A stretch of 64,000 nt of DNA from IMG/VR virus record IMGVR_UViG_646311924_000007, positions 1 through 64,000 of that record; one strand, written 5' to 3'. This DNA is from a virus (Duplodnaviria; Heunggongvirae; Uroviricota; Caudoviricetes). Both the position numbers and the translations under genes were made by a program. The notes below the pieces were generated by a model. The model ran no database searches. It was not told the origin of the DNA and was given only the letters and a program-made list of their open reading frames with translations. Positions 3,839 to 64,000 of this stretch are shown here, piece after piece (within the stretch, counting starts at the first letter, position 1; the number at the start of each line of letters is the position of its first letter).

Positions 3839-3919
3839 CTACCCGCTGTCAAACAGGTGGCAGGACGTGACGGGGTTGACAGACTGGCGTACATGAAACC
3901 AGCAGGCCGAAGCCTCCCC
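3839..3919 (-). ncRNA. c4-like antisense immunity RNA, variant specificity (approximate bounds)
   Basis: Mirror image of the 40610-40690 region with substitutions confined to mutually complementary elements (CATGTAC vs GTACATG; stem CTGTCAA/TTGACAG). Confidence 0.55.
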
Positions 3920-4121
3920 ATCACGCCCCACCATAATTTGGGCGTAACGCGGTTTTACGGACATAAAAATACCGCAATATCGGAAATCTGCGGTTATCCG
4001 CATGTACATTCAGGCTGTCAAACCCGGTCGCAGAATTTGCTACGACGGTGGAACTATAAGCCTGAACGACGGGAAGATCAATAGTCTGGTGTCAATGGTA
4101 GTATTTTTGCCCCAATAAATC

Positions 4122-26920: not shown

Positions 26921-27495
26921 TGCGGGGCGACTGGCCACTCAACATCCGATGCTACTGTTGTATCAACACGATTCAACAATACCCGATATGTCTTCCATGC
27001 AGTCAGTAACGATGCCTCTTCCTCCGTCGCAATATCCAAATCTACGGCATCCTGAAGTGGCGCAATATGCTCACTGGCCATCTGCATCAGGCTGTTTTTT
27101 GTTTCTTCCGCCTTCCGGATCCGGAACAGTTTTTCTGCTTCTGCATCTTTCACCCAGGCTGTGCCGTTCCACTTCTGAAACTCCCCTTCCGGGGATAACC
27201 AGGTGACATTTTCCGGTAATGGGCCAAGTTCAGAAATAAATAACGCGTCGCCGGAAGCCACGTCATAGACGGTTTTTCCCCGATGGTCTTCAACGAGATT
27301 CCACGATGCCTCATCACTGTTGAAAACGGCCACGAAGCCAGCCGGAATATCTGGCGGGGCAATATCGGTACTGTTTGCAGGCAGACCTGTATGAGGTGGA
27401 ATGTATGCATCACCTTCACCAATAAACTCATTGGTTCCGGTCAGTAGATTATAAATTTTTATGGTCCGTGATTGTTCACTCATTCTGAATGTCAT
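26917..27495 (-). CDS. U: tail fibre assembly protein (192 aa)
   Basis: Start overlaps the tail fibre stop (TAATG); typical Tfa size and position. Confidence 0.75.
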
Positions 27496-40409: not shown

Positions 40410-40609
40410 GTATTTTTAAGTCGCGAATGCTATCTTTTCGCATCATATTGACCTTTTAATCGTTCAGGCTTATAGTTCCGCCGTCGTAGCAAATTCTGCG
40501 ACCGGGTTTAGCAGCCTGAATGATTGTGCGGACAGCCGCAGATATCCGATATTGCGGTATTTTTGTGTCCGTAAAACCGCGTTACGCCCAAATTATGGTG
40601 GGGCGTGAT

Positions 40610-40690
40610 GGGGAGGCTTCGGCCTGCTGGTTTCACAATCGCCAGTCTGCTAACCCCGTCACGTCCTGCCACCTGTTTAGCAGCGGGTAG
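40610..40690 (+). ncRNA. c4: c4 antisense immunity RNA (approximate bounds)
   Basis: Lies directly upstream of icd; contains CACAATC complementary to GATTGTG at 40522-40528 and 40706-40712 (overlapping the icd RBS); internal stem CTGCTAA/TTAGCAG. Confidence 0.6.
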
Positions 40691-44115: not shown

Positions 44116-44238
44116 TACAATCGTTGCGGGTGCTTGAGGCTATCTGCTTCAGGCATTACCCGAAAAGCAGATAGAAGAAAGCCCCAGATAACATTACGCG
44201 TCCTGCAAGACGCTTAACATTAATCTGAGGCCACATCT

Positions 44239-44445
44239 ATGCTTAGCATACGTAGATTAGCCTCTTACCGACCAAAAGGTCAAGGAGAAGCAGGCTATGA
44301 AGCAGCAAAAAGCGATGTTAATCGCTCTGATCGTCATCTGTTTAACCGTCATTGTGACGGCACTGGTAACGAGGAAAGACCTCTGCGAGGTACGAATCCG
44401 AACCGGCCAGACGGAGGTCACTGTCTTCACAGCCTACGAATCTGA
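44239..44445 (+). CDS. mok-like overlapping reading frame
   Basis: ORF overlapping almost all of the hok-like gene in another frame, as in hok/sok loci. Confidence 0.35.
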   Translation: MLSIRRLASYRPKGQGEAGYEAAKSDVNRSDRHLFNRHCDGTGNEERPLRGTNPNRPDGGHCLHSLRI

Positions 44446-61325: not shown

Positions 61326-61339
61326 TATTAGTGTAATAT

Positions 61340-61526
61340 CACCTCAATGAATCGTGATTTATAGAGCGATTTAGCTGTTAGCCGCGACAGGCGCGGCGGT
61401 AAGCATGGCTGGGCCTAGTCCTCCCAGACAAACCACCGAGTTGCCAGGTTGACCATGCGCCTAAGTGGCAACGCCGAAGTGCGTTACGAGCGTCCAGTTT
61501 GCCCATCTTCGGGTGGGCGTTTTTTT
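61340..61526 (+). ncRNA. candidate structured RNA ending at an intrinsic terminator (GCCCATC-TTCG-GGTGGGC-T7 at 61501-61526)
   Basis: Several internal hairpins, strong terminator, no credible ORF. Confidence 0.3.
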
Positions 61527-61991
61527 CAGGGTTTTCGTCATGGTTAGCGACTTTGCGGCGGTTTAGAAACTGACCATTAAAGTAAATGCAAACGATGATC
61601 TGATGATGGTAGCGGCCTAAGAAGCCAGATGCCATGGGGTATGAGTCGTCCCCCGTCAAAAAATCGACCGCAGAGTGTCCCCGTCTGTGTATTAGGGAAC
61701 GGGGAGGCACAACAGGTAAGGGCGCTGGTGTGATTAACCAGATGAACGAGAAGGGGCCATCTGTTGGTCAGCGTCCTTTCCTGTTGCGTTTTCTTTTCAG
61801 CGTAACAGCGGTGCTTAACAGCACTTTGGGTACAGTTCCACGAATTTACGGGTATATCCCGTCATGCTGAAGGCGCTAATCACGCTGGAAGCCAGGGTTA
61901 TGCATCCCCTGTTACCGAATTGCAGCCAGGGCGCGGTGCGCCGAAAAGCATACGGAGGTGGAAGCCCTCGCCGGAGACGTACCCGGCAAGT

Positions 61992-62066
61992 GATGGTGTA
62001 GCTCAGCGGTAGAGCAGTTGGCTGTTAACCAACTGGTCGGTAGTTCGAATCCACCCACCATCGCCA
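61992..62066 (+). tRNA. tRNA-Asn (anticodon GTT)
   Basis: Cloverleaf folded by hand; anticodon loop CTGTTAA; CCA encoded. Confidence 0.8.
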
Positions 62067-62071
62067 CTTTA

Positions 62072-62158
62072 GGGGAGTTAGTCCGTAGGGGTAGCGGGGT
62101 AGACTGTAAATCTACTGTCATTGCGACTCGGGTGGTTCGACTCCATCACTCCCCACCA
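62072..62158 (+). tRNA. tRNA-Tyr (anticodon GTA), class II with long variable arm
   Basis: Anticodon stem-loop GTAGA-CTGTAAA-TCTAC, 15-nt variable arm, T-arm GGTGG-TTCGACT-CCATC, CCA encoded. Confidence 0.7.
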
Positions 62159-62162
62159 CATT

Positions 62163-62238
62163 GCCGATTTAGCTCAGTTGGTAGAGCAGTCGCTTTGTAA
62201 GCGAATGGTCAGCGGTTCGATCCCGTTAATCGGCACCA
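62163..62238 (+). tRNA. tRNA-Thr (anticodon TGT)
   Basis: Cloverleaf with acceptor GCCGATT/AATCGGC, anticodon loop TTTGTAA, T-loop TTCGATC, CCA encoded. Confidence 0.75.
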
Positions 62239-62239
62239 A

Positions 62240-62990
62240 CATAACAGGTAAGAGCATTCTCCCTTATGGGGCCTGGCTTAAATGCATCGAGTGCTCTTAC
62301 CGTTGTGATGAAGTGCAGATCTTAGAAGCAACCAGAAGATAAGCATCTGGCTTCACAACATAAACCGCAGGAACGACCAATAAACGGTAGTCCGTATGGA
62401 GAACACCCCGTTGAGGAAGAGGCCTGGCCGGAACCGTAACCGGCGACTGGTAATGTGTGTAAATGGAGCGAAATATGTGGGCGTTTAACGGGATACGGGT
62501 TGTAACAGCGATTATTAACGGCGAACTTAAGTATTCACGTTTCGAGACAAATGAACGTGATGGGAAATGTATTGGTGTGCGGTTAGTAAGAGAATACGCA
62601 TAACAACTACAACGTTGAGAACACTGGCGTAACGGGGTCATATCCCAATCTACGAATAAATGTTGCGTTGCCGCGTGACAACCAGTGTTCTCAACATTGT
62701 GGTGAATGCACAGGCTGATGTGCCGCAACTACAGTAGTGCGCGCTTTGCGGGGCTTGCTACAACCCTGTGTCGGAGTTCAGCACCGACCATCACAGTTTG
62801 ATTCTCTGGCATGAGCATAACGCTGAAATAAGTCCAGTCTGGTGCGGTCTGATCACCCGCCGTTAGCTCCACGAAACGGAGCACGTAACAGGTAAGAGCA
62901 TTCTCCTGTAACGGGTTCATATCCCAATCTACAGGTCCACCAAGAATGCTCTTTCCGTTGCGGTGAATGCGGCTAAGCGCACGCGGGGAA
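62240..62990 (+). repeat. repeated stem-loop modules (CAGGTAAGAGCATTCTCC arms; GTAACGGG-TCATATCCCAATCTAC cores; 14-bp inverted repeat GTTGAGAACACTGG/CCAGTGTTCTCAAC)
   Basis: Repeats and inverted repeats read directly; ORFs in the interval look non-coding. Confidence 0.5.
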
Positions 62991-63111
62991 ATGGTTATAT
63001 CTGTCCATTATTTCTCCTTGTTTCCACGTCCACGGTGGATAACCAGCCAAAGGACACCGGGAGGAACCCGGCACCGCAGCTTTTTTATTCGTTAAATAAT
63101 GGAGTGAGAGG

Positions 63112-63348
63112 ATGCAGAACAATCCGAACAAATGTCGAACGCTATGGGTGCGGTTATATATTTATGCCGTCCTCTGTTTGATTGTGTCACTGGTTCTGTA
63201 TGTTTGGCTTTTGCCAAATATGATCTCATCTAACAGCACAATACTTGTATTGTTGGGAGTCCTTCTCGCGCTCATTTACCCGGCTTTCGCAGTAGTCTTT
63301 TTTCGTGAAAAAACCAGGAAATTAATTAATGAAAAAAACGTTGATTAG
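63112..63348 (+). CDS. small membrane protein (78 aa) upstream of the lipoprotein gene
   Basis: Two hydrophobic helices; overlaps the start of the following gene. Confidence 0.4.
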   Translation: MQNNPNKCRTLWVRLYIYAVLCLIVSLVLYVWLLPNMISSNSTILVLLGVLLALIYPAFAVVFFREKTRKLINEKNVD

Positions 63349-64000
63349 TGCAGCGATTATTTTGGGTTCTTTATGTCTGACCGGATGCGATCGGGTAGAG
63401 CCAGGTAACGTAGGGATCAAAGTAAATAAGCTGGGGGATGATAAAGGTATCGGTGAAGTAGTTGGCGTTGGTCGCTACTGGACAGGCTTGAATACTGAAG
63501 TTTATATCTTCCCGACCTTTAAGCAAATGAAGACATACGATGAGCCGTTCAGCTTCCAGATGAGCGACGGAACAACCATTGGTTACCACATCGGCGTAGC
63601 CTACAAGGTTGATCCAGCAAAAGTCACAACGGTATTTCAGACCTATCGCAAAGGTGTAGATGATATTACTGATACCGATCTACGCCAGAAGGTTGCAGAT
63701 GCTCTGAACCGATTAGCCAGCAAAATGACCACCGACAAATTTATCGACGGTGGCAAATCTGAATTGCTTGATGCAGCCCTTAAAGACATTCAGGAAGAAA
63801 TGACGCCAATCGGCATTCAGGTGATGAGCCTCTCTTATGTAGGTAAGCCAGAATACCCGCCAACAGTTATTGACAGTATTAACGCCAAAGTCACGGCAAA
63901 CCAAAAAACCCTGCAACGCGAGCAAGAGGTCAAACAACGTGAAGCAGAGGCCAACATGCTGCGCGCGGAAGCTGCCGGACAGGCTGATGCTATTCGCACA
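63329..64000 (+). CDS. lipoprotein with SPFH/band-7-like region, truncated by window end
   Basis: Signal peptide with lipobox (SLCLTGC); continues to the window edge. Confidence 0.6.
   Translation, partial: MKKTLISAAIILGSLCLTGCDRVEPGNVGIKVNKLGDDKGIGEVVGVGRYWTGLNTEVYIFPTFKQMKTYDEPFSFQMSDGTTIGYHIGVAYKVDPAKVTTVFQTYRKGVDDITDTDLRQKVADALNRLASKMTTDKFIDGGKSELLDAALKDIQEEMTPIGIQVMSLSYVGKPEYPPTVIDSINAKVTANQKTLQREQEVKQREAEANMLRAEAAGQADAIRT

Follow-up and report, generated by a model that had tools for sequence, protein, structure and literature searches.

The early region of phage T7 contains RNase III sites, and stable RNAs associated with phage tRNA clusters include the species C and D RNAs of T4 and the GOLLD and ROOL RNAs of prophages. 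In the metY-nusA-infB operon, an RNase III hairpin frees the tRNA metY from the mRNA (Regnier and Grunberg-Manago 1989, as cited in PMC5371410). For the small RNA DicF, a 190-nt species with a 5' end generated by RNase III was reported to be absent from an rnc mutant (bioRxiv 10.1101/2023.04.14.536235), a result that confirms Faubladier 1990. Here we describe the interval 61294-63090 of a 64,000-nt stretch of viral DNA (positions 1 to 64,000 of IMG/VR record IMGVR_UViG_646311924_000007, hereafter the window; coordinates are positions in it and strands are relative to its + strand). An original prediction, made from the sequence alone, had pointed to recurring stem-loops around three tRNA genes between dmt and the next gene. 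This observation was confirmed as real and incompletely described: the stem-loops beginning at 61708, 62239, 62606 and 62883 represent one RNA family in four + strand copies, here called long hairpins A, B, D and C.

The covariance model of this family, R1, was built without P1-type sequence and gave exactly four + strand matches in the 64 kb, corresponding to A, B, C and D, while its palindromic echoes on the minus strand did not exceed 26 bits. Hairpin A (61708..61788, +) scored 25.8 bits (E 4e-5; fold z -5.3, all fold z-scores being relative to shuffled sequence) and consists of the family stem alone, without the GGUGAAUGC tail. Hairpin B begins directly 3' of the tRNA-Thr gene end (62238) and, with a short closed tail (62303-62360), occupies 62239..62360 on the + strand (arms 62239-62259 / 62289-62307; 49.1 bits over 62232-62338; fold z -4.5 and -2.65). 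Hairpin D with its closed multi-hairpin tail spans 62606..62796 (+; arms 62606-62627 / 62682-62703; 63.5 bits over 62600-62737; fold z -5.9), and hairpin C spans 62883..62962 (+; arms 62883-62904 / 62943-62962; 70.4 bits, E 3e-16, over 62876-62998; fold z -4.7). Directly 3' of both D and C lie closed multi-hairpin domains. In the R1 alignments a bulged A was present in A, B and C, and D represents a no-bulge subtype that is known in relatives too. The 3' tail GUGGUGAAUGC followed by a 5-bp hairpin was found after C and D, was degenerate after B and was absent after A; this tail had served as the search pattern for the model set.

The repeats listed in the original prediction were largely recovered. 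For the 13-mer AACAGGTAAGRGC, which had been placed at about 61712, 62236 and 62888, the 64 kb contains exactly three copies (61711, 62243 and 62887), each of them on the + strand; when up to two mismatches are allowed, there are 10 matches vs 2.1 expected. The three copies stand, and the middle position was a few bases off. The hairpin core ACGGG...CCC was found at two of its three positions, as the 25-nt motif GTAACGGGKTCATATCCCAATCTAC duplicated with 96% identity at 62629 and 62908; the sequence near 61845 is an unrelated simple hairpin (ACGGGTATATCCCGT). The inverted repeat 62606-62627 / 62682-62703 is also real, 22 nt long and 91% complementary. A second conserved RNA motif, AC-GGG-YYCAUAW-CCC-AAUC, was observed in some hairpin tips (window 62629-62653 and 62908-62932) with a covarying closing stem (CCUGUA/UACAGG, GCGUG/CACGC, CUGAUG/CAUCAG), and it is also present in loci L009 (~1945), L010 (~2255), L045, L092 and L105. 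Some relatives have T-arm-like sequences within hairpin tips, and in other family copies such strings (GGGTTCGACTCCC) occupy the position of the tip motif.

Viral contigs were scanned with the tail CGTTGYGGTGAATGC, yielding at least 120 loci in which a matching 5' arm was always found upstream. Alignment A1 of 33 diverse non-P1 copies, from which R1 was built, showed a 19-bp stem with a bulged A after AAC, a recurrent U.U mismatch at the third pair above the bulge and a hypervariable tip, followed on the 3' side by the conserved single strand GUGGUGAAU and a 5-bp hairpin. Conservation of the GUGGUGAAUGC tail is partly an ascertainment effect, because the model set was collected with it. In A1, 92.6% of the cells were paired vs 30-60% in slid controls with the 3' partners moved, 11 pairs showed compensatory double changes, and 0/500 shuffles reached the observed values. 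G.U pairs, which would be A.C on the other strand, were frequent (column pair 27/169 is U.G in 24/33 sequences), and these together with the strand bias of the scores show that the selected structure is the + strand RNA.

Among the fetched loci, R1 matches of at least 40 bits numbered 147 in 113 loci. Lambdoid, ST64B-like, SSU5-like and N4-like phages were the hosts of the family, and distant BLAST matches to pieces of the hairpin region recurred in lambdoid, Klebsiella, Cronobacter, ST64B and SfV-type phages. The copies lie in noncoding stretches after Q, cI-like repressor genes and tRNAs, with an antiterminator Q or a cI/LexA-like repressor gene on the same strand as the usual upstream neighbour; examples are sites between Q/pR' and the holin gene in HK629, 3' of a four-tRNA array in a Klebsiella phage and 3' of a cI-like gene in ST64B. 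All 45 family matches with a tRNA within 1 kb (45/45) were co-oriented with it. Copy number varies from 3 to 5, RCS47 having five. The structure, strand and distribution of the family are therewith established. Conservation extends far past the P1 relatives, so that the refuting outcome named with the original prediction, a lack of conservation in relatives, clearly does not hold. Rfam scans of the window hairpins, at gathering thresholds and at E<=10, returned microRNA-type noise alone, and in eight related loci scanned at gathering thresholds the long hairpins were assigned to no family. Text searches of the literature, to which access was limited, returned nothing relevant for the family consensus sequences, for P1 with dicF or for tmRNA-like phage elements. 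Every component is similar to a known kind, but within that access the long-hairpin family appears to be undescribed, as does the tmRNA-like element without a tRNA-like domain at 61529-61705, which the original prediction had not noticed; its phrase "uncharacterised RNA system" is fair for these two parts.

The link to RNase III comes from the E. coli K-12 prophage Qin. Directly 5' of a DicF-precursor block, an R1 hairpin is present both in the lambdoid locus L134 and in Qin, where it lies at 566-692 of locus L246 (31.3 bits, E 4e-8; arms 573-596 / 639-658; fold z -3.3) and dicF is annotated at 783-835. When 190 nt are counted back from the dicF 3' end, the cut falls at about position 646, inside the 3' arm of the Qin hairpin (639-658). 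The stems predicted in the window are 19-30 bp long, which is the size of an RNase III substrate (about 20 bp or more, irregular). Because of the Qin anchor, these stem lengths and the positions of the hairpins, RNase III is the best-supported mechanism, and cleavage of the window hairpins by this enzyme is probable by analogy.

The window itself carries a DicF-precursor-like domain at 61390..61472 (+), part of the "dicF-like region" of P1. It aligns through long invariant stretches (74% alignment-wide identity) to the sequence that immediately precedes genuine DicF in a lambdoid dicF-dicB operon (L134), where the Rfam DicF model (RF00039) scores 76.7 bits, and the same block occurs in Qin (L246 670-750). 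The 52-nt DicF model gave no match in 61200-63200 at E<=10. An intrinsic-terminator-like hairpin with a T7 run was located by a terminator scan and alignment A3 at 61497..61526 (+), at the position of the missing DicF body. Judged from these alignments, 61390-61526 is homologous to the DicF precursor without the DicF core. The "terminator-bounded transcript" that had been proposed for 61340-61526 is thus the region already annotated in P1 as dicF-like; its terminator-like site lies ~180 nt 3' of the P1-annotated promoter, and a Pban transcript ending there would be ~180 nt long.

A further module follows hairpin C. The STnc100-like closed domain (62959-63078) with its U-run occupies 62959..63090 (+) and ends ~25 nt 5' of the next ORF (63112). 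Rfam STnc100 (RF02076) scored 38 bits here (E 3e-6; gathering score 47) over model positions 31-147 of 206, with a fold z of -2.6, and the same partial match was found in phage ST64B. STnc100 is related to PasD (bioRxiv 10.64898/2026.05.13.724894). The tail of hairpin D (62696-62796) has the same architecture as this domain: its closing helix GUGGUG/CAUCAC is made by UUGUGGUG (62697-62704) pairing with CAUCACAG (62789-62796). In predicted folds of this tail the closing helix forms, yet the fold is no better than shuffles (z -0.7). In Qin, the same GGTGAATGCGGCTGAGCGCACGCGG start lies directly 3' of DicF. A kissing interaction between the GGCUGA and UCAGC loops of the D tail is possible; variant L112 lacks it. 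The homologies of the DicF-precursor-like, STnc100-like and tmRNA-like modules are established by sequence comparison; any function of the tmRNA-like and STnc100-like RNAs is putative.

Segment 61300-63120 shares 99.3% identity with Escherichia phage vB_EcoM-Ro157c2YLVW and 100% with E. coli plasmid NZ_CP027590, and the window therefore comes from a P1-like phage-plasmid. In P1 (AF234172), the sigma-70 promoters P1ban/P2ban and Oban (Op72) at the end of dmt are followed by the "dicF-like region", tRNA-Asn and tRNA-Thr, and further downstream by tciABC, the third tRNA and then ban. Transferred at 98% identity, this annotation places the Pban promoters (P2ban, P1ban) and the bivalent C1 operator Oban/Op72 at 61294..61339 (+), overlapping the dmt 3' end. 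The operator pair corresponds to a 16-nt inverted repeat at 61308-61339, and the promoter block 61294-61339 was left unflagged by a generic sigma-70 scan. The record of P7 states that the operator controls the tRNAs. Since the P1 promoters and operator map to 61294-61339, the interval 61294-63090 is, on this transferred annotation, the untranslated leader of the C1-repressed ban operon, and all the modules lie on the + strand downstream of the promoter and operator.

In our view it is likely that this long untranslated 5' part of the ban operon is a polycistronic stable-RNA operon in which the hairpins act as RNase III sites. The C1-repressed Pban would drive rightward transcription across the interval, and the modules would be co-transcribed. 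The serial modules would be the DicF-precursor-like leader with its attenuator or terminator, the tmRNA-like element, the three tRNAs and two STnc100-type multi-hairpin domains, separated by the four long-hairpin copies. In each hairpin, a double-stranded RNA stretch of ~20 bp, its bulge and mismatch at fixed places, would be where RNase III most likely cuts. Cutting would free the tRNAs with short 3' trailers for exonucleolytic trimming; the same cuts would generate the 5' ends of the small-RNA domains further downstream and separate these domains from the mRNA of the genes that follow. In addition, the conserved arms would double as homology patches for swapping modules (tRNA-Tyr, tRNA-Ser, ORF insertion). 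Of the interpretations offered originally, co-transcribed processed small RNAs fits best, as all modules are on the + strand 3' of Pban and the Qin family member coincides with a mapped RNase III site; overall, the original interpretation is partly supported.

Several points weigh against an RNase III-processed operon. The Qin copy is the sole experimental anchor for RNase III and bears indirectly on the window copies, and the Qin link depends on a size estimate of 190 nt that is accurate to a few nt. For a single transcript to span the interval, polymerase would have to pass two terminator-like structures, 61497-61526 and 63045-63090. The majority of family members do not lie beside tRNAs, 89 matches being in tRNA-less loci. 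Conservation of the arm sequence exceeds the need of a mere double-stranded RNA substrate, which hints at an additional partner or recent horizontal spread. Individual hairpins are also dispensable, because SJ46, which has undergone a deletion by recombination between the two 25-nt repeats, tolerates a D/C hybrid with non-pairing arms.

Mosaicism among the relatives was evident. Compared with P1, the window has in addition the tRNA-Tyr cassette and a 161-bp insertion (62445..62605, +), which BLAST mapping found lacking in P1, RCS47, P7, D6 and SJ46. The insertion holds a 42-codon ORF (62475-62603; MWAFNGIRVV...) that is preceded by GGAG at good ribosome-binding spacing and is annotated as a hypothetical protein in MH160767; tblastn matched this ORF solely in the near-identical phage Ro157c2, and no Pfam match was obtained. 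In P7 and D6, a segment carrying tRNA-Ser stands in place of 62720-62940, between D and C, and a family hairpin comes after it once more; in CMS-2020a hairpin D is joined directly to tRNA-Thr. Since the module swaps of the relatives occur at hairpins, the conserved arms behave as exchange points.

This raises the alternative that the hairpins act as DNA, as recombination or insertion sites (cassette joints, attC-like or MITE-like palindromes) mobilising tRNA and small-RNA cassettes, with the RNA structure incidental. Besides the coincidence of the mosaic breakpoints with hairpins or their repeats, the hypervariable tips and the copy number of 3 to 5 agree with such a role, and the arms start with ...AAC and end with GTT..., loosely resembling integron cores. 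However, sequence identity by itself would lead to recombination between conserved arms as a side effect, and the + strand matches (49-70 bits) clearly exceed the minus-strand echoes (<=26 bits). Many G.U pairs are valid solely in the + strand RNA, orientation to tRNAs is fixed (45/45), and no integrase or transposase was associated with the loci examined. We therefore regard a DNA-level role as unlikely. An integron attC site, with RYYYAAC / GTTRRRY cores, extrahelical bases and IntI, was rejected as an identity for the hairpins: just AAC...GTT is shared, no integrase was found in the flanking genes examined, and strand specificity is at the RNA level.

Three tRNA genes on the + strand, as originally predicted, were called by ARAGORN and Rfam in agreement: tRNA-Asn (GTT) at 61992..62066 (69.9 bits), tRNA-Tyr (GTA, long variable arm) at 62072..62158 (41.9 bits) and tRNA-Thr (TGT) at 62163..62238 (67.8 bits), all passing the gathering score of 29 bits of the Rfam tRNA model RF00005. 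The second was correctly read as a class II tRNA-Tyr; it is genuine, with an ARAGORN call of GTA, and is an extra cassette relative to P1, for which the set of Asn, Thr and Ile given in the original prediction agrees with the P1 annotation. This tRNA-Tyr is present in vB_EcoM-Ro157c2YLVW and CMS-2020a and lacking in P1, RCS47, SJ46, P7 and D6; P7, D6 and CMS-2020a have an additional tRNA-Ser(TGA) downstream. It is ~83% identical to tRNA-cluster sequence of large (167-174 kb) Enterobacter/Escherichia phages, one of whose clusters is annotated tRNA-Tyr/tRNA-Asn. Phage tRNA-Tyr defeats retron/Septu (PtuAB) nucleases (PMC11555353, PMC13096335), and the extra tRNA-Tyr fits this work.

No further match to the Rfam tRNA model was found in 61200-63200 at E<=10, including none on the window hairpins, and the suggested "degenerate tRNA-like elements" are thus unsupported in the window. 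The 25-nt motif was considered as a degenerate tRNA and rejected, its 68% match to the tRNA-Tyr anticodon arm being best read as chance. Unusual tRNA-like genes were observed in relatives (L005 2788-2874, L006 2607-2693, L007 3239-3325, L131 1010-1081 and 1373-1451, L132 980-1071); ARAGORN called them Ser-TGA, Ala-CGC and Cys-ACA, one with a 22-nt insert, and the Rfam tRNA model scored them weakly or below threshold.

The tmRNA-like element (61529..61705, +) was recognised from BLAST, alignments A2 and A4, tag frames, covariation and sub-threshold Rfam tmRNA matches. With 61335-61990 as the query, BLAST matched 335 phage records, with most hits on 61530-61706, and the carriers included virulent N4-like phages (PD38), Ackermannviridae (phiMAM1) and Sf11-like siphoviruses. 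The invariant core AAAUGCAAACGAU opens a start-codon-less frame, GCA AAC GAT GAT CTG ATG ATG GTA GCG GCC TAA, in the resume-codon context AAAU|GCA; an in-frame stop lies 8 codons upstream, with no ATG/GTG in between. The frame reads ANDDLMMVAA (61588-61617, +), and its stop codon (61618-61620) is in the loop of a helix-5-like stem. The frames of relatives read ANDDVVLMAA, ANDNAYLMVA, ANDEQFLAVA, ANEEMYLAAA and others; across all 20 nucleotide variants the length of 10 codons and a terminal Ala/Val-Ala are preserved, and the last Ala codon changes synonymously. Such conservation follows the pattern of SsrA tags, that of E. coli being ANDENYALAA.

Alignment A4, covering the stop-codon-loop helix, an H-type pseudoknot (S1 61636-61639/61650-61653; S2 61646-61649/61665-61668, +) and a terminal hairpin (61679-61704, +), had 87.7% of its cells paired, whereas slid controls reached at most 48%, and showed 45 compensatory (double-change) cells vs 14 in shuffles (0/500). 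Three Rfam tmRNA models gave sub-threshold matches exactly on the element; tmRNA_permuted reached 24.1 bits here and 33.4 bits in PD38 (gathering score 47), and the same resume context was found in viral contigs with ARAGORN-called complete permuted tmRNAs. ARAGORN made no tmRNA call on the window element, pairwise alignment to E. coli ssrA was not significant, and no tRNA-like domain (acceptor stem G3.U70, T arm, 3' CCA) was detected around the element, either in the window or in relatives. A search around 45 copies for an acceptor strand complementary to GGUUUUC/AGUUUUC, T-loop strings and CCA ends gave no consistent candidate. In lambdoid phages, the first bases of the element, GUUUUCG, form the basal 3' strand of a preceding long hairpin, whose 5' arm has been lost in the P1-type copy. 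Among loci gathered by the tmRNA-like pattern alone, the R1 hairpin was present in 20/26 phage-type copies vs 3/74 others. A perfect 12-nt complementarity (GAAGCCAGATGC / GCATCTGGCTTC) between 61621-61632, just past the tag stop, and 62343-62354 in the hairpin B tail, 710 nt apart, was also seen and may be due to chance.

A more tentative suggestion, which we consider possible though doubtful, is that this element and its relatives form a working, previously unrecognised class of phage tmRNA-like RNAs without a conventional tRNA-like domain. It could be a split molecule, with the acceptor part supplied through the preceding long hairpin of other phages in a topology like that of permuted pre-tmRNA, or a decoy that captures SmpB or stalled ribosomes. 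If so, phages would rewrite or block host trans-translation through this element, and the long-hairpin family would provide both scaffold and processing for a widespread array of phage "RNA cassettes" that also includes tRNAs and small RNAs.

Instead of functional modules, the elements might be decaying relics (degenerate tRNAs, a dead tmRNA fragment, a truncated dicF locus) carried as functionless passengers of the tRNA genes. The DicF core is deleted, the tmRNA-like element is without a tRNA-like domain and its window copy also without the 5' arm known from lambdoid phages, D/C pairing has been lost in SJ46, and the hairpin tips of some relatives contain T-arm-like strings. Decay is nevertheless difficult to reconcile with the compensatory changes in the hairpin stems, the tmRNA-like helices and the pseudoknot, with the 20/20 tag-frame variants that keep 10 codons and the Ala/Val-Ala end, and with the retention of the elements in virulent N4-like and Ackermannviridae phages as well as in temperate ones; nor did the window hairpins match the tRNA model even at E<=10. 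Relic status is accordingly quite improbable.

It is very unlikely that the modules instead control elongation, as attenuators, Rho barriers or boxA-type Nus-factor antitermination signals enabling RNA polymerase to reach ban. The rrn boxA sequence is UGCUCUUUAACAA, and the commonest 3' arm, UGCUCUUU(CC), equals its first 8 nt. A small hairpin of boxB size lies 12 nt past the boxA-like string, and an untranslated 1.8-kb leader with two terminator-like sites needs protection from termination. However, the boxA-like string is paired within the stem and is replaced in the covarying variants AAAGCGAUCCCC, GUGUUCUCAAC and GAAUCCUUAGC, and many copies are in lambdoid late operons that are already Q-antiterminated. 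A boxA/nut site, which is single-stranded with a conserved GCUCUUUA-type sequence, was likewise rejected as an identity for the motif, which is inside a stem and swapped in covarying variants.

That 62297-62920 encodes minus-strand proteins equivalent to P1 plp and upl is extremely improbable: P1 and RCS47 annotations place these genes there and the window has open frames of 143 and 63 codons, but the frames have no Pfam match, run antisense to modules D and C (found again in unrelated phages that have no such ORFs), are interrupted among relatives by 161-bp and 254-bp indels and segment replacements, and have no gene at their position in the NCBI pipeline annotation of plasmid relatives. P1 plp and upl are most likely annotation artefacts; in the original prediction, too, the ORFs of the interval had looked non-coding.

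P1 is among the textbook phages, and phage-plasmids related to it are common in clinical E. coli; even so, annotation of this 1.8-kb stretch is limited to two or three tRNAs, a loosely defined "dicF-like region" and two genes that are probably spurious. A single hairpin family punctuates the noncoding regions of many enterobacterial phages, from lambdoid late leaders, immunity regions and N4-like tRNA clusters to the Qin dicBF operon. It offers a simple rule, open to testing, for the packaging, processing and exchange of tRNAs and small RNAs by phages, and a processing-signal handle for annotating prophage small RNAs (DicF, STnc100, PasD). Conservation of the tmRNA-like tag element from P1 to virulent Ackermannviridae and N4-like phages raises the question of phage interference with, or replacement of, ribosome rescue.

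Other features were recorded around these modules. Between hairpin A and tRNA-Asn, a P1-group-specific spacer (61789..61991, +) folds into small hairpins (e.g. 61847-61861) and showed no BLAST similarity outside P1 relatives. Upstream, dmt (58278-61319, +) has 1013 codons vs ~754 codons (2265 bp) for the P1 dmt coding sequence; its C5-cytosine methylase motif GGTPC|QAFS is split by an intein-like insert (CFTAGHM...VVHN), and Pfam reported Hint_2 (28.2 bits, just under the cutoff of 28.4), LAGLIDADG_3 (30.2 bits, cutoff 22.5), DNA_methylase and MethyltransfD12. Downstream, at 63112-64000, P1 tciABC is replaced by genes for a small membrane protein and for an SPFH-like lipoprotein that bears the annotation "putative serine protease" in relatives; the same pair lies 3' of two long-hairpin modules in an unrelated viral contig (L100 5231-6290). 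Elsewhere in the window, two C4 antisense RNA copies, each with an a1/b1 target element, lie ~36 kb apart in opposite orientations (3853-4059, -; 40470-40676, +), and P1 is expected to hold a single immI-type C4 locus. Rfam hits above gathering also included sok antitoxin RNA (44128-44302, +, 114.8 bits) and "IS009" RNA (26954-27152, -, 192.4 bits).

When compared with the described systems, the modules resemble T4 species C and D RNAs and GOLLD/ROOL in being structured noncoding RNAs beside and co-oriented with phage tRNA genes, but the window units are small, repeated and shuffled whereas GOLLD/ROOL is one giant RNA; neither was listed in the Rfam scans (64 kb at gathering, 61200-63200 at E<=10). 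With STnc100/PasD, the window domain shares the closing helix UGCGGUG...CACCGCA, a start of AAU plus hairpin, the CACCGGGAGGAACCCGG hairpin and the U-run, although its score is sub-threshold and model positions 1-30 and 148-206 are unmatched. The tmRNA-like element has the identical resume context (AUAAAU|GCAAACGAUGA) of the permuted (two-piece) phage tmRNA (Rfam RF04321), as well as the 10-codon tag AN(D/E)xxx..AA and a stop in the helix 5 loop followed by a pseudoknot. In contrast to that RNA it is without acceptor stem, T arm and CCA, has a single pseudoknot after the tag, is ~175 nt rather than 300-400 nt long and falls under the ARAGORN and Rfam thresholds. The RNase III sites of metY-nusA-infB and of the T7 early region are similar in arrangement, a long irregular hairpin after a tRNA or between cistrons that frees a stable RNA from the downstream mRNA; compared by arrangement, those sites are single-copy and not modular, without a variable-cargo tip or conserved tail. 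The Qin dicBF site belongs to the same family, with the same basal stem, bulge position and downstream block (GGCGCGGCGGUAAG...) as window 61390-61472; 3' of the Qin hairpin come a small RNA and, next, an STnc100-like tail. In the window, the DicF-precursor-like block is without a preceding hairpin and without the DicF core, and the hairpins flank tRNAs, the tmRNA-like element and the STnc100-like domains.

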